A DNA stretch of 64,000 nucleotides, from the NCBI GenBank assembly GCA_963719225.1, contig CAVRAY010000001.1, positions 480,001 through 544,000 on the forward strand, read 5' to 3'. Source of the stretch: Thermoanaerobaculia bacterium (GTDB lineage Bacteria; Acidobacteriota; Thermoanaerobaculia; UBA5066). Of the stretch, positions 4,822-44,400 are shown one piece after another; the stretch's first letter is position 1, and each line of letters opens with the position of its first letter. The position numbers and the translations under genes are program-made. The notes beneath the pieces are model-generated. The model made no database searches. It had not been told where the DNA came from and worked only from the letters and a program-made list of their open reading frames with translations.

Positions 4822-6260
4822 ACGTCGCCGTCCCCGATCGGTTCGGTCTCGCCCGCGGGGCGCAGAGAGTCGCCGCGCGGCCAGACAGCCCGGCCTTCGC
4901 GGGACGGCTGCTCGTGGTGCTCGTCACGGCGACGTGGGCCAGCAGCCTTTTTCTCGACCTGACGGTCGTCGTCGAGGCGCTCACTGTCATCGGGTTCGCC
5001 GCCGCCCTCGCCGGCGTCGTCAACCCCGCTGCGGGACTCATGGGCGTTGCCATCCTCGGCGCTCTCGACGCCGTGTCCCGCGTCTTCGTGTTCACGGGCG
5101 GACTCCTTCGCTGGAACACGCTGAGCTATTTCCTCCTGGCCGCCGCGGTGATCGGGTGGCGGACGCTGTCGCGCCTGAAGGGCCGCTCGATCGTGCTCCT
5201 CGTGCTGTTCCTGGTCCTCCTCGTGGTGGAGATTCCGTTGGGGACGGACCTCGAGAACGGACTCGCGCACGTCCTGAGCCTCGCGGCCATCCTCGGGCTC
5301 CTCGTCTTCGTCCTCCGGGGGACCCGGCAGGCCGACGTCTGGCCGTGGGTCGCGATCGTGTCCGGCTTTCTCGCGGCAGGAGGCGGCTTCGCGTTCTACC
5401 GGCACGGAGCGCTCGGCGATCTGATCAATCCGAACGCCTGGGTGTACCTCCCGCTCACGGCTCTCCTCCTCGCGGACGTCGCGCTCGCCGTTTCGCCGAT
5501 GTCCGCCGCGGCGAGACGGACGATCGTCGTCCTGTCGGTCTTGAACCTTGGCTGGGCTTTCCTGAGCGGAAGCCGGGGAGGGTTTTTCGCTGCGGTCGTC
5601 GCGATGACCTATCTCGTTCTGGGAGGGCGCACGTCTTTCAAGGCCCGCGTCGGCGCCCTCGTCGCCCTAGCGGGCGTCGCTGCCGTGACGGGCCTCTTCG
5701 GCGATCTCCAGGAGGAGATGGACGCCCGCCTCACGAAGCTCCTCGACCCCACACGCACGCTCGCGAGCCGGACGAGCGGCCGCTCGGACCTCGCGATCGC
5801 GGGCTGGCACGTCTTCCTGGAGCATCCTCTCGGCGTCGGAACCGGAGGCTTCGCCGCCGCGGGCGAAGAGCTCGGCCGGCGCGAGAATCTCTCTCTCTAC
5901 CGGGGCCGCGGTGCGACGCAGGCCCACTCGGCATGGATCAAGACACTCGCGGAAAACGGCGTTCCCGGGATCCTTCTCTTCGCGGGCTTCGTGCTCTCTT
6001 TCGTCCTGACGGGCTTTCGAAGGCGCCGGGACGGGCTCTTCGGCCTTGGCCTCCTGACGACCGCCGTTCTGGCCGTCTCGTTTCTCTCGAGTGAATTCCA
6101 GGCGAAGGGACTGTGGCTCTTCGTGGCCGCGGCGATGGTCACGCTCGAGGCGCGGCCGCGTCTCGGCGACGCGCGCCGGGCGCCACATGTGACGGCGCCC
6201 CTCGCCGACGACGGTCGAAACCCATGGAAAACGAACGCGAACGCCCCCGCGTCGCGCTGA
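4818..6260 (+). CDS. O-antigen ligase / Wzy_C-family polytopic membrane protein
   Basis: Many TM segments; SGSRGG, RTSGR, HPLGVGTGGF, AHSAWIKTLAENG motifs. Confidence 0.82.
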   Translation: MNVAVPDRFGLARGAQRVAARPDSPAFAGRLLVVLVTATWASSLFLDLTVVVEALTVIGFAAALAGVVNPAAGLMGVAILGALDAVSRVFVFTGGLLRWNTLSYFLLAAAVIGWRTLSRLKGRSIVLLVLFLVLLVVEIPLGTDLENGLAHVLSLAAILGLLVFVLRGTRQADVWPWVAIVSGFLAAGGGFAFYRHGALGDLINPNAWVYLPLTALLLADVALAVSPMSAAARRTIVVLSVLNLGWAFLSGSRGGFFAAVVAMTYLVLGGRTSFKARVGALVALAGVAAVTGLFGDLQEEMDARLTKLLDPTRTLASRTSGRSDLAIAGWHVFLEHPLGVGTGGFAAAGEELGRRENLSLYRGRGATQAHSAWIKTLAENGVPGILLFAGFVLSFVLTGFRRRRDGLFGLGLLTTAVLAVSFLSSEFQAKGLWLFVAAAMVTLEARPRLGDARRAPHVTAPLADDGRNPWKTNANAPASR

Positions 6261-7345
6261 TCGCGGGCACGCTGGGGCAGGGCGGCGCGGAGAAGCAGCT
6301 CGTCTACGCCGCGCGGGCCCTCGCCTCTTCGGGCGTCGAGGTCCTCGTCCTGAGCCTGACGCGCGGAGAGCACCACGAGGCCGCGCTCCGGGAGGCGGGA
6401 ATCCCCATGCGCCACGTGGGAGGGAAGGAGGGCGTGGCGCCGCGCCTCGCGAGGATCGCGCGCGAGGTGCGCCGGTTCCGGCCGCAGATCGTGCAGGCCG
6501 CCCACACGTACACGAATCTCTACGCGTCGTTGGCCGCACGCTCGGCCGGCGCTCTCGGCATCGGCGCCCTGCGCAGCAGCGTCGCGCACGTCCGTGCCGG
6601 AAACGGCGCCTGGACGCGCTGGCTCCTGCGCTCCCCGTCGGCGATCGTCGCGAACTCGCACGCCGCCGCGGACGAGCTCGCGAAGCTCCCGGGATTGGCG
6701 CCCCGGCGCCTGTACGTCGTCCCGAACGTCATCGAGGCCGCCTCCGCGCCTCCGGCGGACGCGACGGAGGCCGGGTCGCCCCGGACCGCGATCGTCGGCC
6801 GTCTGATCCGCACGAAGCGTGTCGACCGGTTCCTCGAGGCGCTCGCGCTGGCACGCCGGGAGGTTCCCGGGCTCAGGGGCGTCGTCGTGGGCGACGGGCC
6901 CGAGCGCGCGTCGCTCGAAAGGATCGCCGCCGAGCTCGGCCTCTCTTCCGCCGTGGAGTTCCTCGGCGCGCGCAACGACGTCCCCTCGATCCTCGCGGCC
7001 GTCGACGTCCTCGTCCTCTCGTCGGACGACGAAGGATTTCCCAACGTGCTCCTCGAGGCGATGGACGCCGGCCGGCCCGTCGTCGCGACGGACGTCGGCG
7101 ACGTGCGCGAGGTCGTCCGGGACGAGACGACCGGATACGTCGTCGCGAGGTCCCCGGAAGAGATGGCGAGCCGGATCGCCCTCCTCGCGCGCGACCGGGA
7201 TCTCGCGCGGCGGATGGGGGCCGCGGGACGCGCGCGTCTCGGAGCCGAATACGGCCTGCCGGCCCTCGCCGGGTCGCTCCTCGGCGTGTTCCGCGACCTC
7301 GCGAAGAAGGAGGGGCACGCGCGTGCCTCAGCGGCTTTCGCCTGA
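6224..7345 (+). CDS. Glycosyltransferase family 4
   Basis: GGAEKQL, VGRLIRTKRVD, SSDDEGFPNVLLEAM, PVVATDVG. Confidence 0.9.
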   Translation: MENERERPRVALIAGTLGQGGAEKQLVYAARALASSGVEVLVLSLTRGEHHEAALREAGIPMRHVGGKEGVAPRLARIAREVRRFRPQIVQAAHTYTNLYASLAARSAGALGIGALRSSVAHVRAGNGAWTRWLLRSPSAIVANSHAAADELAKLPGLAPRRLYVVPNVIEAASAPPADATEAGSPRTAIVGRLIRTKRVDRFLEALALARREVPGLRGVVVGDGPERASLERIAAELGLSSAVEFLGARNDVPSILAAVDVLVLSSDDEGFPNVLLEAMDAGRPVVATDVGDVREVVRDETTGYVVARSPEEMASRIALLARDRDLARRMGAAGRARLGAEYGLPALAGSLLGVFRDLAKKEGHARASAAFA

Positions 7346-38397: not shown

Positions 38398-39390
38398 ATG
38401 GCAACCGCAAGGCGCCTCAGGCAGACGATTCTCAGGGAGGCGGTCCGCGAAAACGTGGACGTCATCGAAAAACGTCTGCCCAGGGGCCTGAGGCGCGCCG
38501 ACCGCTTTCGAAGGCATCTCTTCCGCACCTCCGTCTTCATCGTCGTGCCGCTCGCCCTCTTCCTCTCCATCAACGCCCTGACGACGGGACGCGGCGAACG
38601 CACGGACGTCCTCGTCGTCGCGGGACCGTCCGCGGCCCCGCGGGTCCCCGCGGCCGTCATCAACGCTCCGAACGGCCTCGAACCCTCGCTCTTCCACCTC
38701 GAGGTGCGGTCCGTCGTGATCGACCCGGGACACGGGGGGCTGGATCCCGGAGCGGCGGCCTCCGGAGTCGTGGAAAAGGACGTGACGCTCGACGTCGCGC
38801 GGCGTCTCCGAGAGCTCCTCGTCGCCCAGAAGATCGCCGTATCGCTCACGCGCGACGCGGACACGACGCTGTCGCTGCGCGACCGCGTCTCGCTCGCGAA
38901 CGCGAAAAAAGCCGATCTCTTCGTGTCGATCCACGTGAACTCGCTGCCGGCCGTGAAGGAGAAGCGCGGCGTCGAGACGTATTTTCTCGGCACGACGACC
39001 GACCCGCACGTCCAGCGGCTCGCTCTCGACGAGAACCGAACCTCGGGCTACACGATGGCGGATTTCCGGCGCCTCCTCGAGGGCGTCCTCGCGGACTCGC
39101 GGCAGGGCGAGTCGCGCAAGTTCGCCGAGTCCGTGCAAGGGGGGCTCGTGAACGCGCTCCGCCCGGTCGTGCCCCGCCTGCAGGACCGCGGCGTGCGAAG
39201 CGCGCCCTTCGCGGTCCTCATCGCGACGGAAATGCCGGGTGTGCTCGCGGAGGTGTCGACGGTCTCGAACGAGGACGAGGCGCGCCATCTCCGGGATCCC
39301 GCGTATCGTCAGCAGATCGCGAGGGCTCTCTGCAACGGGATCCTCGCCTACGCGGAGTCGCGGAACCATCCGCCCTCCAAACGGAGTTGA
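38398..39390 (+). CDS. Membrane-anchored N-acetylmuramoyl-L-alanine amidase (Amidase_3)
   Basis: IDPGHGG, EKDVTL, LTRD, SIHVNS, GVETY, VLAEV; N-terminal TM helix. Confidence 0.92.
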   Translation: MATARRLRQTILREAVRENVDVIEKRLPRGLRRADRFRRHLFRTSVFIVVPLALFLSINALTTGRGERTDVLVVAGPSAAPRVPAAVINAPNGLEPSLFHLEVRSVVIDPGHGGLDPGAAASGVVEKDVTLDVARRLRELLVAQKIAVSLTRDADTTLSLRDRVSLANAKKADLFVSIHVNSLPAVKEKRGVETYFLGTTTDPHVQRLALDENRTSGYTMADFRRLLEGVLADSRQGESRKFAESVQGGLVNALRPVVPRLQDRGVRSAPFAVLIATEMPGVLAEVSTVSNEDEARHLRDPAYRQQIARALCNGILAYAESRNHPPSKRS

Positions 39391-39391
39391 C

Positions 39392-40411
39392 ATGAGCGGG
39401 AAGAAGGAAGTTCTCCACGTCGGCATCGACCTCGGCACGTCGCGCAGCGCGATCACGGCGTCGAACGGCGTGCATCACGTGGTCGAGAGCTACGTGGGAT
39501 GGCCCCTGGACATGGTAGCGAGGAAAGTCGTCAAGAAGCCGATCCTCTTCGGCGCCGAGGCCCTCGAGAACCGGCCGATGCTCGACCTGCACCGCCCGCT
39601 CGAGCGCGGCCTCATCAAGCAGGGCTCGGCGAAGGACGAGGAGGCCGTGCACGAGCTCCTGAAACACCTCATCTCGCTCGCCGGGAAGAAAGACGGCCAG
39701 TCCGTCCACGCCGTCGTGGGCGTGCCGGCCGAGGCGCTCCGCGTTTCGCGTTTGCACCTGCGCGGCGCCGTCAAGGGGATCGCCGACGCCCTGCTCATCG
39801 TGTCCGAGCCGTTCGCGGTGGCCTTCGGAATGGACGCGCTGCTGCACACGATGGTCATCGACATCGGCGCGGGGACCACGGACTTCTGCGTCATGAACGG
39901 GCGCTACCCGACCGAGGACGACCAGCGCACGCTGACGCACGCGGGCGACTCCATAGACGAGCAGCTCATGGCTCTCGTGAAGACGAGGCACCCGGACGGC
40001 CGCTTCTCGATCCACATGGTCCGCGACTGGAAGGAGAAGAACAGCTTCATCGGCAACGCGCCGGGACCGGTCGTCGTCCGGTTCCCGGTGAAGGGCAAGC
40101 CGGTCGATGTGGACATCACCGCCGAGATGAAGAAGGCCTGCGAGAGCGTCGTCGGCCCGATCGCCGAGACGATGCTCGATCTGCTCGCGAAGGTCGAGCC
40201 CGAATACCAGGAGAAGGTGCAGCGCAACGTCGTCCTGGCGGGCGGCGGCTCGCAGATGCCCGGTCTCGCCGCCGCGCTCGAGAAGACTCTCGCCGAGCTC
40301 GGCGGGGGCCGCGTGCGCGCCGTGGAGGATCCCGTCTTCGCGGGATCGAACGGCGGGCTCGCCATCGCGCTGGACGCGCCGGAAGGCGACTGGGAGCCGC
40401 TCTCGGCATGA
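39392..40411 (+). CDS. mamK: MamK-like bacterial actin
   Basis: GIDLGTS, VGWPLD, AVVGVPA, IVSEPF, IDIGAGTTD, PEYQ..V..NVVLAGGGS, DPVFAG; resembles MamK rather than MreB by recalled comparison. Confidence 0.85.
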   Translation: MSGKKEVLHVGIDLGTSRSAITASNGVHHVVESYVGWPLDMVARKVVKKPILFGAEALENRPMLDLHRPLERGLIKQGSAKDEEAVHELLKHLISLAGKKDGQSVHAVVGVPAEALRVSRLHLRGAVKGIADALLIVSEPFAVAFGMDALLHTMVIDIGAGTTDFCVMNGRYPTEDDQRTLTHAGDSIDEQLMALVKTRHPDGRFSIHMVRDWKEKNSFIGNAPGPVVVRFPVKGKPVDVDITAEMKKACESVVGPIAETMLDLLAKVEPEYQEKVQRNVVLAGGGSQMPGLAAALEKTLAELGGGRVRAVEDPVFAGSNGGLAIALDAPEGDWEPLSA

Positions 40412-42162
40412 GTCCCGTCGACAGCGGCTTCCCGCGGGATTCCGGCGTGAAGAAGCGGATGCTCCCCTCGGTGACCGAGGTCGTCCGCGAGCTCGCCAAG
40501 GTCGTCTCCGCGGACCCGGCCGTGCTGTTCAAGGGCGCGCGGAGCGTGGTCGCCGAGGAGCTCGCGAAGGTGAAGCAGGGGTTCGAAGCGGCGCCGCTCG
40601 ACGTCCTCGTCAAGAGGGCGCGCCTGCAGCTCGAGCGCGACGGCGAGGCGACCCCCGTGTCCGACCCGCCCATGCCCGTCTTTCCGACACGCCCCGCGCC
40701 GTCGCGCGATGCGGCGGAAACCCCTTCGTCTCCCGCGGGCGGCGCCTCCACGAAGAGGGCGACTCCCGACGATCCCTTTCAGGACGTGGCGTCGCGGGCG
40801 GAGCTCAACTGGGAAAAGGAGATCCCGATCCAACCCGAGGACGCGCCCTTCCGCTCCGCGATCCTTCCCATTCCGCGCAAGTCGCGGGGGCCGCTCGAGA
40901 TTTCCCAGCCCATCGACGCGCCGCACAAACCCGCTTCGGAGCCGAAGGTTGAGCCAAGAGTTGAGCCGAAGGTTGAGCCGACGCCTGGGCTGAAAACCGA
41001 GCCGGCCCCTCGGAAACCGCATCCCGAGCTGGAGCTGGACTTTGCTCGCCCGTCGCCGGCGGCGCCCGAAGCTCCCAAGCCAAAACCGAGAGTCGCGCCT
41101 CCCGAGCCGCCTCCGGTTCGGCCCGAGCCGGCTCCGAAGCCGAAAGCAACGCCTGCCGAGCCCGCGCCGCTCGCGTCCGAGCCCGCAGAACCGGCGCCGA
41201 AGCCGGCCCCGGCCGAGGTTGCGCCGGAAAAGCCGATGCAGCGTCCCGCGGTGGTGTCCGCACCCGCCATCCCGCTCGTGAACCCGCGCGAGCTCGAGCT
41301 CCCCGAGGCCCTCTCCCGGCGCGCTTCGCCGCCTCCCTCGGTTCCCAAGGCTCCTTTCGAGCCGCTTCCGCAGCCCGCCGGCCCGGAGCGGTTCCTCGTG
41401 ACGCCGGCTCCGCCTCCGCGGCGCGAGCCCGCGGTGATGTCCATGTCGGAGATGCCGCCCCTCGCAGAGACTCTCGAGGACCAGATCGAGAACCACGACG
41501 ACACGCAGCCGAACATGGAGGAGTTCAATTTCAAGGCGGCTGAAAATCCCGCCCCGGCGCAGGCCCCGCCGCCCTCCCGCTCGAGCCGAAGGGGCTGGCT
41601 CGTTGCGATCCTGGGCGTCCTCGTGATCGCCGCGGGCCTGACGTGGGCCGTGCGCGAGGGCGTTTTCAAGAGCGACGTCGTCAGGAACCCAGCGCTCGTC
41701 ACGCAACAAATCCCCGACCTGGCGCCGCCCGAAAGCGTGGCGCCCGCACAGGCACCCACGGCTCCGCCACCCGTCCTCGGAAAACCCGCGGGGCCGCCAT
41801 CGAAATCCGCTCCCGCTCCGGCGAAACAGTCTGCCGCCGGTCCCCCCTCGGGCGCCGCGATCCCGAAGGGCCGGGCTGCGGTGCTGCTGACGCCCGACTG
41901 GGCGGGGAAGCCTGTCGTCTACGTCATTCACTTCTCGTCGACGAAGGATCGCGAGAGCGCGGCGAAGGAGGCGCAGAAGCTCGGCGCCGCTCTCGGCGCT
42001 CCCGCACGCGCCGTCGAAGTGGATCTCGGCGAAAAGGGGACCTGGTACCGCGTCGTGATCGGCGAGTTCAAAGACGTCGACGCCGCGCGCGCGTTCCGCG
42101 CGGAGCTCGAGGCGAAGAAGACGCCGGGCATGGGCTTCGTCTACGAGATGCGGGGGCGCTGA
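40408..42162 (+). CDS. Bitopic Pro-rich membrane protein with C-terminal SPOR domain
   Basis: Helical N-domain, long Pro/Glu-rich linker, TM GWLVAILGVLVIAAGLTWAV, SPOR-like YVIHFSS...WYRVVIGEF...AARAF; ATGA overlap with mamK-like gene. Confidence 0.85.
   Translation: MSPVDSGFPRDSGVKKRMLPSVTEVVRELAKVVSADPAVLFKGARSVVAEELAKVKQGFEAAPLDVLVKRARLQLERDGEATPVSDPPMPVFPTRPAPSRDAAETPSSPAGGASTKRATPDDPFQDVASRAELNWEKEIPIQPEDAPFRSAILPIPRKSRGPLEISQPIDAPHKPASEPKVEPRVEPKVEPTPGLKTEPAPRKPHPELELDFARPSPAAPEAPKPKPRVAPPEPPPVRPEPAPKPKATPAEPAPLASEPAEPAPKPAPAEVAPEKPMQRPAVVSAPAIPLVNPRELELPEALSRRASPPPSVPKAPFEPLPQPAGPERFLVTPAPPPRREPAVMSMSEMPPLAETLEDQIENHDDTQPNMEEFNFKAAENPAPAQAPPPSRSSRRGWLVAILGVLVIAAGLTWAVREGVFKSDVVRNPALVTQQIPDLAPPESVAPAQAPTAPPPVLGKPAGPPSKSAPAPAKQSAAGPPSGAAIPKGRAAVLLTPDWAGKPVVYVIHFSSTKDRESAAKEAQKLGAALGAPARAVEVDLGEKGTWYRVVIGEFKDVDAARAFRAELEAKKTPGMGFVYEMRGR
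40939..40980 (+). repeat. 12-bp tandem repeat encoding EPKV/EPRV
   Basis: GAGCCGAAGGTT GAGCCAAGAGTT GAGCCGAAGGTT GAGCCG. Confidence 0.85.
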
Positions 42163-42199: not shown

Positions 42200-43680
42200 T
42201 GTCAAAGCTCCTTAGAAGTGTCCCCTCGTAGAGCTCGTTAGAAATGTCCCCTTTTGGTCGTCGTAGTCGTCGCGCGGTGGAAATGTGGAAAACGGGAGGC
42301 CGGCCTCATCGGAGGCCGGCGCGCTCCTTGCGCTCCCATGAAGCCTGGACGCTTGCGGCGGTTAATGGTGTTCTCCAGGGGTGAACATCAGAGGGCGCTT
42401 TGAAAGGGCGGCGTGTTGCCACGGAGGCCGGCTTGATCAGTGGCGCCGGCCGAGGCGGCCGGTTTTTGATTTCGTGAAACTCGAGGGCTCGATGGTAGTG
42501 AAGCAGCACCCGACTGCCATCAAGCCTGTGGCGAACCACGATCTTCTCGCGGCGGCGCGGCATCTGAGACTTGGGCCCGGTAATCTGGAACCAGCGGCCG
42601 TCCCAGGCGACCGTCCAGTCGTTCTGCACGGTGCGCTGCTCTTCGAAGACGAAAACATCCTCGAGCCGTAGGCGCTTGGGCACGGGTCGGTGGTAGTCGA
42701 CTCGGCTAGCCGAGCTGTGCGCGAATCTCTGATTGATCGTCTCGAGGAATCCTCCTCTCAGAAGGGCGTTGGCCGCCTGGAGGTCCTTGATGCCATGCAG
42801 CCTGAACTCCTTGACGAGCCGGTCCTGAAGCACGCCGTGCCGCCGCTCGATCCTGCCCTTGGCCTGAGGGCTGGCTGCGGGAATGATCTGAATCGAGAGC
42901 TTGTGGCAGGCCTTGCCGAAGGCCGTCAGTGCAGGCCGGCCTAAGAGCTGCTCGTCTTTCGTCGGCTCGCGATCAGCCACGTAGAGATTCTTGTGGTCGG
43001 TGTAAAGCGCCTTGGGGATCCCGTAAAGCTCGATCCACCGCCACAGCACCCTCATCGCTCCTTCGGTGGTCTCCTGCTCGAAGAATTCGCCTCCCATCTT
43101 CGCCGTGGCGTCGTCGACGAGGTCGATCAGGCATGGCTTGTGGCCCGTCTCGAGCCAGTCGTGGAAGCTTCCGTCCATCTGAACGAGCTCGCCGAAGTGC
43201 TCCTTCGGCGGCCTCCACCTGCGGTGCGGCCCTCGTTTCCTTTTCTTCTTCCACAGCCCCTCTACCATCAGCCACCGCCGCAACGTCTCGTGAGAAACCC
43301 TCAGCCCCACCTCGAGAAGCTTCTCGGCCGCCAGTGTCGGCCCAAAACCTTCCAGCCGCGTCCGGCAGAGCTCGAGACTCTGCTGCTTGCTCTCAGGGTC
43401 CAACTTCCGATTCGACGGCCGTCCTCGCGAGCGATGCACCAGTCCCTTGGCGCCCTCGGCGCGGTATCTCTTCCAGATCCTCTTGCCCTGCCGCCCGCTC
43501 ATCTGAAGCCGCTCGGCAGCCGCCACGACCGTCTGACGCCCGGCCTTCACCTGCTCGAGCTCCACCAGCCGCGCTCTCTCCTTCGTGCTCAGCCCCACGA
43601 TCTCCTCCATCGCGCCCCCTTCTTTACGAGGGGACACTTCTATCGAGTTATCGAGGGGACACTTTCATGGAGCTACGACA
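42200..43680 (-). mobile_element. Insertion sequence, IS1202 (ex-ISNCY) family, 17-bp target-site duplication
   Basis: TGT...ACA ends; imperfect IRs TGTCAAAGCTCC / TGTCGTAGCTCC with repeated AA(G/A)TGTCCCCT sub-terminal sites; GTACGTCGCTGCGTCGG at 42183-42199 and 43681-43697. Confidence 0.92.
42306..43610 (-). CDS. DDE transposase (IS1202/ISNCY type)
   Basis: N-terminal HTH, GELVQMDGSFHDW, VDDAT, LYTD, SPQAKGRIER..LQDRL. Confidence 0.93.
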   Translation of the reverse strand: MEEIVGLSTKERARLVELEQVKAGRQTVVAAAERLQMSGRQGKRIWKRYRAEGAKGLVHRSRGRPSNRKLDPESKQQSLELCRTRLEGFGPTLAAEKLLEVGLRVSHETLRRWLMVEGLWKKKRKRGPHRRWRPPKEHFGELVQMDGSFHDWLETGHKPCLIDLVDDATAKMGGEFFEQETTEGAMRVLWRWIELYGIPKALYTDHKNLYVADREPTKDEQLLGRPALTAFGKACHKLSIQIIPAASPQAKGRIERRHGVLQDRLVKEFRLHGIKDLQAANALLRGGFLETINQRFAHSSASRVDYHRPVPKRLRLEDVFVFEEQRTVQNDWTVAWDGRWFQITGPKSQMPRRREKIVVRHRLDGSRVLLHYHRALEFHEIKNRPPRPAPLIKPASVATRRPFKAPSDVHPWRTPLTAASVQASWERKERAGLR

Positions 43681-43697: not shown

Positions 43698-43726
43698 TTG
43701 ACATCTGATGTGTGATGCGTGATGCT
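43698..43726 (+). promoter_or_regulatory. sigma70 promoter and palindromic operator of vapBC
   Basis: TTGACA-17 nt-GATGCT, 6 nt before the ATG; palindrome ACATC-T-GATGT at 43701-43711. Confidence 0.6.
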
Positions 43727-43732
43727 ATCCCG

Positions 43733-43960
43733 ATGAGGACGACACTCGAGATCGACGACGATGTCTTGCAGGCGGCGAAGGAGATCGCGGCCAATCGCTC
43801 GACTACGGCCGGTCGAGTCCTTTCGGCCCTCGCGCGAAAGGCGCTCGAGCCGGGAAGGCAACCGCAGGTACGCAACGGGGTACCCCTGATTCCGCGCCGG
43901 CCGAAAGGGAGCGTCCGCCCGACGATGGCTCTCGTCAATCGGCTCCGGGACGAGGCGTGA
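43733..43960 (+). CDS. vapB: VapB-type antitoxin (RHH)
   Basis: MRTTLEIDDDVLQAAKEIA...RNGVP; GTGA overlap with the PIN gene. Confidence 0.88.
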   Translation: MRTTLEIDDDVLQAAKEIAANRSTTAGRVLSALARKALEPGRQPQVRNGVPLIPRRPKGSVRPTMALVNRLRDEA

Positions 43961-44400
43961 GGCGAGTCGCCCTCCTCGACGTCAACGTCCTCGTCGCGCT
44001 GTTCGATCCGGATCACGTGCACCACGAAGCCGCCCATCAATGGTTTCGCGGCATTCGCCAGGATGGCTGGGCCACCTGCCCGATCACAGAAAACGGGCTC
44101 GTGCGGATTCTCTCGAATCCCGCCTACATGGCCCGCCCCGAGACGCGCGGAGCGATCGTCCGACGCCTCGTCGACTTCTGCGCGAGCGGTGAGCACGTCT
44201 TCTGGTCCGACGAGATCTCGTTTCGAGACCACGGTCTCTTTAAGTGGTCCGCGCCCGTGTCCCACCAGGCGCTCACGGACGTTTACCTGTTGGGTCTTGC
44301 GAGGAGCAGGTCGGGGAAGCTCGCGACGTTCGACCGAAGTATTCCCGTTGCGGCCTTCGTCGGAGCCGACCGAGGAACACTCGAGGTGATCCCGGCCTGA
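43957..44400 (+). CDS. vapC: VapC PIN-domain ribonuclease toxin
   Basis: LLDVNVLVAL, HVHH, TCPITENG, TDVYLL, LATFD. Confidence 0.92.
   Translation: MRRVALLDVNVLVALFDPDHVHHEAAHQWFRGIRQDGWATCPITENGLVRILSNPAYMARPETRGAIVRRLVDFCASGEHVFWSDEISFRDHGLFKWSAPVSHQALTDVYLLGLARSRSGKLATFDRSIPVAAFVGADRGTLEVIPA

Follow-up and report, generated by a model that had tools for sequence, protein, structure and literature searches.

What might a MamK-type actin do when it is encoded directly behind a peptidoglycan amidase and outside a magnetosome cluster? The question is raised by a 64,000-nt stretch of DNA (the window, meaning the whole stretch analysed) from a Thermoanaerobaculia bacterium (assembly GCA_963719225.1, contig CAVRAY010000001.1, here C1, positions 480001-544000), whose genome of 4.75 Mb in two contigs is 97% complete and 6% contaminated. 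Three open reading frames (ORFs) stand there in tandem on the forward strand, encoding an Amidase_3 protein, the actin and a protein with a SPOR domain (Table 1). They are tightly coupled and share one orientation, as the original prediction from the sequence of the window had noted: the amidase TGA ends at 39390 and the actin ATG follows at 39392 after a 1-nt gap, and the actin TGA (40409-40411) shares letters with the SPOR-gene ATG at 40408 in an ATGA overlap. That prediction had tied a MamK-type actin to peptidoglycan enzymes outside a magnetosome cluster, which stands, and had described a three-gene module with the SPOR protein as tether, which is not supported. The conserved unit is the amidase together with the actin. 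We judge from sequence comparison, at a probability of about 0.58, that in this two-gene module a MamK-type filament likely binds a cytoplasmic helix of the amidase and would thereby direct the cleavage of peptidoglycan stems to selected places in the wall.

Table 1. Features of the amidase-actin-SPOR locus (positions are those of the window).
Feature	Position	Strand	Description
Amidase_3 N-acetylmuramoyl-L-alanine amidase (core gene 1)	38398..39390	+	330 aa; predicted inner-membrane signal-anchor protein
Conserved N-terminal amphipathic helix of the amidase, candidate actin-docking motif	38410..38472	+	residues ~5-25, centred on Asn19; predicted cytoplasmic
Predicted transmembrane segment of the amidase	38533..38589	+	residues 46-64, following an Arg-rich stretch; mean Kyte-Doolittle hydropathy 2.0 (19 residues)
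Amidase catalytic domain	38713..39345	+	Zn ligands H112, E126, H179; likely catalytic E285; AmiA-type regulatory region
MamK-type actin-like ATPase (core gene 2)	39392..40411	+	339 aa; assigned by NCBIfam MamK, PDB matches, AlphaFold2 and tree
Predicted bitopic SPOR protein, lineage-restricted accessory gene	40408..42162	+	584 aa; Pfam SPOR
Conserved N-domain of the SPOR protein	40441..40641	+	~70 aa; from an alignment of 41 loci
Pro-rich variable linker, predicted cytoplasmic	40648..41592	+	residues 81-395, 26% Pro; poorly conserved in relatives
Predicted transmembrane segment of the SPOR protein	41596..41652	+	residues 397-415; sole hydrophobic segment, hydropathy 2.4
SPOR domain, predicted periplasmic	41920..42117	+	PF05036, E 1e-9, residues 505-570

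The amidase and the actin are the conserved unit

Among the best 80 of 232 genome loci, the amidase lies directly upstream of the actin in 78, and the remaining two have almost no upstream DNA. The arrangement is therefore far beyond chance. One draw of 121 genomes of the class, each at least 90% complete, was then surveyed for joint occurrence. The actin was carried by 78 of these genomes; an amidase orthologue (E<1e-50) accompanied it in 77, the 78th having a partial match (residues 4-227), and was found in none of the 43 genomes without the actin. The two genes were adjacent in 76 of the 77 genomes that held both and were split over separate contigs in the other. These counts include kin and are not independent, so that the Fisher value is not relied on. 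Joint absence of amidase and actin nevertheless recurs within families f1, f5, f7, f8 and f11. Two genomes of the survey are unpublished (G030, which carries the actin and the SPOR gene, and G025, a non-carrier), and the conclusions are independent of both. The pair is confirmed as real and conserved.

Phylum-wide, 33 of 401 genomes yielded the actin, five of them outside the class. In the phylum of a locus titled Rokubacteria (G434) 12 of 121 genomes carry the actin, all 12 with the amidase, and in that of a locus titled Binatia (G435) 9 of 151 carry it, two with the amidase. The amidase is also present at 26 of 80 metagenome loci, every one with an actin identity of at least 49%. Two metagenome loci at or above this identity show no amidase, namely L194, with 6 kb of upstream sequence seen, and L206, with 0.45 kb.

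The genome that holds the window has its own mreB-mreD-PBP2-rodA operon (C1:64-71 kb; MreD slightly below its Pfam cut-off), ftsA elsewhere and three further SPOR proteins, and a longer amidase of another type is present twice. Therefore, the amidase-actin module is additional to the standard wall and division machinery. No published description of an amidase paired with a MamK-type actin was found in a literature search that did not cover supplementary material, where such loci could be listed, and the pair is apparently undescribed in print. Beyond the papers discussed below, cited here by accession, the search also turned up PMC10653835, PMC13200544, PMC7203096, PMC12748827 and PMC9376291.

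Family and phylogeny of the actin

The best NCBIfam family of the actin is MamK (NF040964), at 375.6 bits and below the cut-off of 400, followed by BeeR (NF053558; 211 bits, cut-off 530) and MreB (69 bits, cut-off 293). The value of 400 is no clean border, since relatives P0006 and P0009 exceed it with 425 and 420 bits. The best PDB matches are MamK chains (E 3e-75 for 5LJW), and a single-chain AlphaFold2 model (pLDDT 93.7, pTM 0.90) has the actin domain beginning at residue 7. All seven motifs that had been put forward as MamK-like (VGWPxD, AVxGVPA, VSEPF, DIGAGTTD, PEYQ, DPxF and a terminal W) occur in the translation. Family scores, structural matches and the model indicate an actin fold with MamK-type nucleotide motifs, in keeping with the original MamK-type reading, and the actin is not of the MreB type. 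Close relatives of the actin are annotated as MreB in their records.

In the main tree (53 rows, LG+C20, five BeeR-like rows as outgroup; 32 of 85 rows removed as redundant or long), 20 amidase-linked actins and the L194 actin form one clade (94/84) with subclades supported at 100/100 and 100/97. The sister clade (92/89) intermixes eight magnetosome-labelled rows with 19 other MamK-likes, and monophyly of the eight was rejected (p-AU 1e-5) by a test picked after the tree had been inspected. A mam neighbour above cut-off is present at only two of the labelled loci, L146 and L149; the remaining six were labelled from MamE or MamM-like matches below threshold, feoB, or similarity. A quick 85-row tree with an MreB outgroup recovered the same split (SH-aLRT 98) with the root placed inside the amidase-linked group, and is distrusted for its long branches. 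The amidase-linked actins are most likely a sister clade to magnetosome MamKs and other MamK-likes. The locus might preserve an ancestral context for MamK, as had been suggested, if the root of the distrusted quick tree held, but the better tree gives a sister clade. Residues specific to the clade were listed at 27 alignment columns, which do not define a docking site.

The top family and the top structures would also suit a true magnetosome MamK, or a leftover of a lost magnetosome cluster. However, the genome-wide best scores of the magnetosome models lie far under their cut-offs in this 97%-complete genome: 89.5 bits for MamB and 89.6 for MamM (both 350), 68 for MamA (200) and 153 for MamE (800), with no match to MamI, whose model had no positive control. 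The set of models searched consisted of MamA, B, E, I and M, with mamQ outside it. Positive controls on the fetched magnetosome loci L146 and L149 passed (MamM 418 against 350, MamH 728 against 300). Moreover, the amidase-linked actins fall in a separate clade, and no mam gene lay beside the actin in any amidase locus inspected. A magnetosome origin is already largely refuted, and we regard it as extremely improbable. By gene context and by tree the actin is not a magnetosome MamK, and the non-magnetosome setting first given to it is upheld across the genome.

Several MamK-type proteins of unusual build were seen amongst the sequences collected. N-terminal extensions of 300-900 residues occur in P0014, P0021, P0022, P0024-P0030, P0033, P0035, P0047 and P0060, several of which are over the MamK cut-off. 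In P0083 an FtsZ domain (residues 4-315) and a MamK domain (residues 434-765) share a single protein, either a fusion or a gene-calling artefact. The actin match of G581 (L238) contains one TGA, possibly an assembly error. Another actin-fold protein of the genome studied here, of DnaK-like type and about 500 aa, is encoded at C1:296425-297927.

The amidase and its N-terminal helix

The amidase matches Pfam PF01520 (Amidase_3; E 7e-50, residues 106-316), with E. coli AmiA (8C2O) as best PDB match. From its N-terminus, a basic region leads into a single hydrophobic segment, which a variable linker connects to the catalytic domain; the protein is predicted to be anchored in the membrane with its N-terminus in the cytoplasm. 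When aligned to AmiA, with the functional residues taken from PMC10268282, it keeps the equivalents of His65, Glu80 and His133, has E212 in the blocking helix as the equivalent of AmiA Glu167, and retains four of the five hydrophobic residues of the interaction helix (L226/L227/V230/L231). Conservation among the amidase rows is complete for H179, E285 and E212 (73/73) and reaches 70/73 for H112, with three gaps. Because the AmiA-type blocking-helix Glu and interaction-helix hydrophobics are kept, the enzyme is predicted to be autoinhibited and dependent on a LytM-type activator. There are seven M23 genes in the genome, and three regions were inspected; none was assigned as the activator. In all 17 genomes of genus g21 (e.g. 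G215, G260, G345) a single-protein query at E<=1e-20 matched no amidase other than the actin-linked enzyme, which hints at a role in septal splitting. At L031 (6990-7190) the amidase N-terminus is frameshifted, possibly by assembly error.

By the predicted topology, the N-terminal helix is the only conserved part of the amidase that faces the cytoplasm. It is conserved across unselected loci while the adjoining linker varies freely, and is basic and amphipathic with a hydrophobic moment of 0.43. With training rows and repeated genomes included, a profile of the helix reaches 12 bits or more at 138 of 152 amidase loci and at none of 62 other loci. Of the 14 misses, 12 are truncated by a contig or locus edge, and in the other two the helix is visible by eye. 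The profile matches once in the whole genome.

A similar helix was found at the C-termini of genes upstream of other MamK-type actins. The amidase-trained profile reaches at least 8 bits in 3 of 102 upstream C-termini, compared with 2 of 5100 shuffles. A motif derived mechanically from the amidase tails was applied to the last 45 aa of ORFs. Among 109 ORFs immediately upstream of MamK-type actins at non-amidase loci it matches 5, compared with 3 among 3180 other ORFs, and those three are also same-strand upstream genes (genome control 1/1960). A wider hand-made pattern was written after matches had been seen. Of the 47 loci whose upstream DNA is long enough, it marks 16, and of its 23 matches 22 lie upstream on the strand of the actin. 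The genes that bear the helix are unrelated, comprising GGDEF, PAS and unannotated proteins. Upstream genes ending in an amidase-like helix were seen at L180, L181, L183, L188, L189, L191, L192, L197, L204, L208-L211, L215, L217 and L218, and at L207 and L211 two successive upstream genes carry it. Magnetosome-like neighbours accompany the helix at L207, L208, L209 and L211, and the motif was not seen at L145, L146 and L149, the three best-supported magnetosome loci. The link between the amidase helix and these C-termini is suggestive, and is not proven homology because a reciprocal profile built from the C-terminal helices ranks the window's amidase helix only 99th of 38,460 ORFs. For a docking peptide, the C-terminal matches are the strongest evidence at hand, although indirect.

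These matches bear on two other accounts of the pair. Under the first, both genes would serve one pathway by co-regulation only, and the helix would dimerise the amidase or lie along the membrane, not touching the actin itself. Its basic, amphipathic character would agree with this, as would the L194 actin that has no amidase. However, the motif occurs on unrelated proteins almost only just upstream of MamK-type actins (22/23 matches of the wider pattern, 8/8 of the mechanical motif), and we consider co-regulation alone quite unlikely. Under the second, polarity is reversed: a wall-bound and mostly autoinhibited amidase would anchor the filament to the envelope, and the filament would position an organelle, an inclusion or DNA much as MamK does. 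Positioning is indeed the known role of MamK (PMC11929497, PMC13170167), the same helix occurs on non-enzymatic proteins beside other MamK-type actins, and the blocking Glu is conserved in 73/73 rows. Nevertheless, the catalytic residues are conserved equally, and no cargo or organelle gene is common to eight inspected loci of 15-16 kb; this too appears unlikely.

Helix docking and positioned wall cleavage, the reading that we prefer, has a number of observations weighing against it. The low reciprocal rank is one, and the writing of the wider pattern after the fact is another. The invariance of the Asn in alignment A3 arises by construction, the rows having been chosen with a pattern containing Asn. 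A helix of this kind, amphipathic with a central Asn, might instead serve for dimerisation as a coil or bind the membrane. None of the seven M23 genes was identified as a cognate activator. The L194 actin (5998-7029), a member of the clade, keeps most of the clade-specific residues with no amidase in the 6 kb upstream, and stands behind an unrelated 508-aa gene. Lastly, 43 of the 121 class genomes are without the pair, which is therefore dispensable.

The SPOR gene

At all 41 loci with an actin identity of at least 76%, the N-domain of the SPOR protein stands directly downstream of the actin; it does so at none of the 39 below, where the downstream genes vary. An orthologue of the protein (E<1e-27) occurs in 19 of the 121 class genomes. 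Eighteen of these carry the actin, that is 18 of 78 actin carriers, against 77 of 78 for the amidase. The synteny of the original three-gene unit is thus kept for the order of amidase and actin, the SPOR gene being lineage-restricted, and the three genes do not make up a conserved module.

The original prediction had the SPOR protein bind glycan denuded by the amidase and tether the filament by way of the N-domain and the Pro-rich linker. Such a tether would account for the translational coupling of actin and SPOR gene, for the N-domain at all 41 closer loci, and for weak SPOR-like matches downstream of the distant loci L151 (E 0.003) and L158 (E 2e-4). However, the N-domain is missing from all 39 more distant loci and the orthologue from most actin carriers. 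Moreover, G720 (99% complete) keeps a full SPOR protein with an intact N-domain (L246:6029-7408), with neither the actin nor an amidase orthologue found, and the SPOR protein contains no docking-like motif. A SPOR tether is therefore very unlikely, and the sequence evidence makes the amidase helix, and not the SPOR linker, the likely tether of the actin filament. SPOR domains bind amidase-denuded glycan. The weak matches at the two distant loci suggest that SPOR partners may have been recruited repeatedly, which fits a glycan-binding role for an optional helper.

The N-domain had no Pfam family over cut-off, and the ESM Atlas gave nothing usable for the N-termini of the SPOR protein or the amidase. 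A likeness to the N-terminus of SelA, from one Pfam match (E 0.097) among five N-domains, was rejected, the score against the genome's own SelA being -0.3 and under that of shuffles.

Proposed mechanism

We propose that the MamK-type actin likely forms ATP-dependent filaments beneath the inner membrane, on which the cytoplasmic N-terminal helix of the predicted membrane-anchored amidase would dock. The filament would set where the amidase strips stem peptides from the wall, and the amidase is predicted to remain autoinhibited unless turned on by a LytM-type activator, whose gene would lie elsewhere. Most probably the module serves an additional and dispensable form of wall remodelling, such as septal splitting or local shaping, next to the genome's MreB and FtsA systems. 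Where the SPOR protein is present, as an optional add-on in a few families, its ligand would be the glycan that the amidase has denuded.

To our knowledge, the bacterial links between actins and wall hydrolases run through MreB or FtsA machines. If the proposal is true, wall cleavage could be patterned by one more route, a dedicated MamK-type filament that grips its own amidase across the membrane, and an actin steering wall cutting from inside the cell via an amidase helix would be an undescribed mechanism. The pair that might act in this way is spread over about two thirds of the sampled genomes of the Thermoanaerobaculia class, plus other phyla.

A broader and tentative extension, which we would not yet favour, is that the helix is a general docking peptide of the MamK family grafted onto unrelated proteins. 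It would steer wall cleavage on the amidase and, at the C-terminus of genes just upstream of mamK in deep-branching magnetosome loci, act as the missing MamJ equivalent. Magnetosome MamKs, not monophyletic in our sample, would have been drawn from a broader set of tethered actins unconnected with magnetosomes. Deep-branching magnetotactic bacteria, as far as we know, are without the known Magnetospirillum chain factors except MamK, and the upstream helix-bearing genes are candidate MamK tethers in them. Furthermore, mamK-like matches alone are no proof of magnetotaxis. A mamK homologue has been described in Thiomargarita (bioRxiv 10.1101/2022.04.11.487978).

Surroundings of the locus

A likely transposase with helix-turn-helix domains lies immediately downstream of the SPOR gene (window 42306-43637, reverse strand) and is followed by a toxin-antitoxin pair of VapB-like and PIN type (43712-44400, forward strand). 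A scan for promoters and terminators gave nothing above chance, and a plasmid search gave no match. Six RNA runs contain just 5-8% of the sampled words; the three inspected show contigs of relatives, mostly at 82-95% identity, and are uninformative on transcription or co-transcription. Elsewhere in the genome, the longer amidase, tmRNA and tRNA-Pro form a block that occurs in two diverged copies, at C2:217-223 kb and C2:609-615 kb. Their tmRNA tags differ by one residue, and the two copies may stem from duplication or belong in part to the 6% contamination.

Comparison with known systems

MamK (NF040964; PDB 5LJW, 5JYG, 5LJV) is the closest characterised family of the actin, which keeps its nucleotide-binding motifs. 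MamK works with the adaptors MamJ and LimJ, and so needs an accessory tether, as we propose for the actin here. In contrast to MamK, the actin is under the family cut-off, falls in a separate clade and has no mam genes, and its partner is a wall amidase and not a magnetosome protein.

In the division machinery, a short cytoplasmic peptide of the bitopic protein FtsN binds the actin FtsA. This binding parallels our proposal; however, FtsA is encoded elsewhere in the genome and the FtsN tether is no hydrolase. The SPOR protein of the locus does not have the build of FtsN either. FtsN has a short cytoplasmic N-terminus and a long periplasmic linker before its SPOR domain, whereas here some 395 residues precede the membrane segment, and the score on the FtsN model TIGR02223 is only 16.8 bits.

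BeeR (NF053558; PDB 8R2N) is, like the actin here, a MamK-related actin of non-magnetotactic bacteria, and its function is unknown (PMC11929497). The actin here scores well short of the BeeR cut-off (211 against 530 bits) and is without the disordered N-terminal extension of 30-50 aa found in BeeR, and the available part of PMC11929497 names no amidase partner. FcmB-FcmC, which shapes cells (PMC12645912), is a two-gene unit of actin and tether like the present pair, but FcmB is derived from ParM and the FcmC tether is no hydrolase.

The amidase shares with E. coli AmiA/B/C (PDB 8C2O; PMC10268282) the Amidase_3 domain, the Zn ligands, the blocking-helix Glu and the interaction-helix hydrophobics. 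It differs from them in its predicted inner-membrane anchor, its conserved cytoplasmic helix and an Asn at the Asp135 position, and the genome here also holds a separate, longer amidase type.

A precedent for an actin that controls autolysins is that of the MreB isologues of Bacillus subtilis, which control LytE and CwlO (PMC3817527). There, an actin governs the site of wall hydrolase action, as is proposed here. Their actins are of the MreB family, the enzymes are endopeptidases and CwlO is controlled via FtsEX, whereas here a MamK-type actin and a dedicated, predicted transmembrane amidase make up one gene pair. The module most plausibly works like an actin-guided autolysin.

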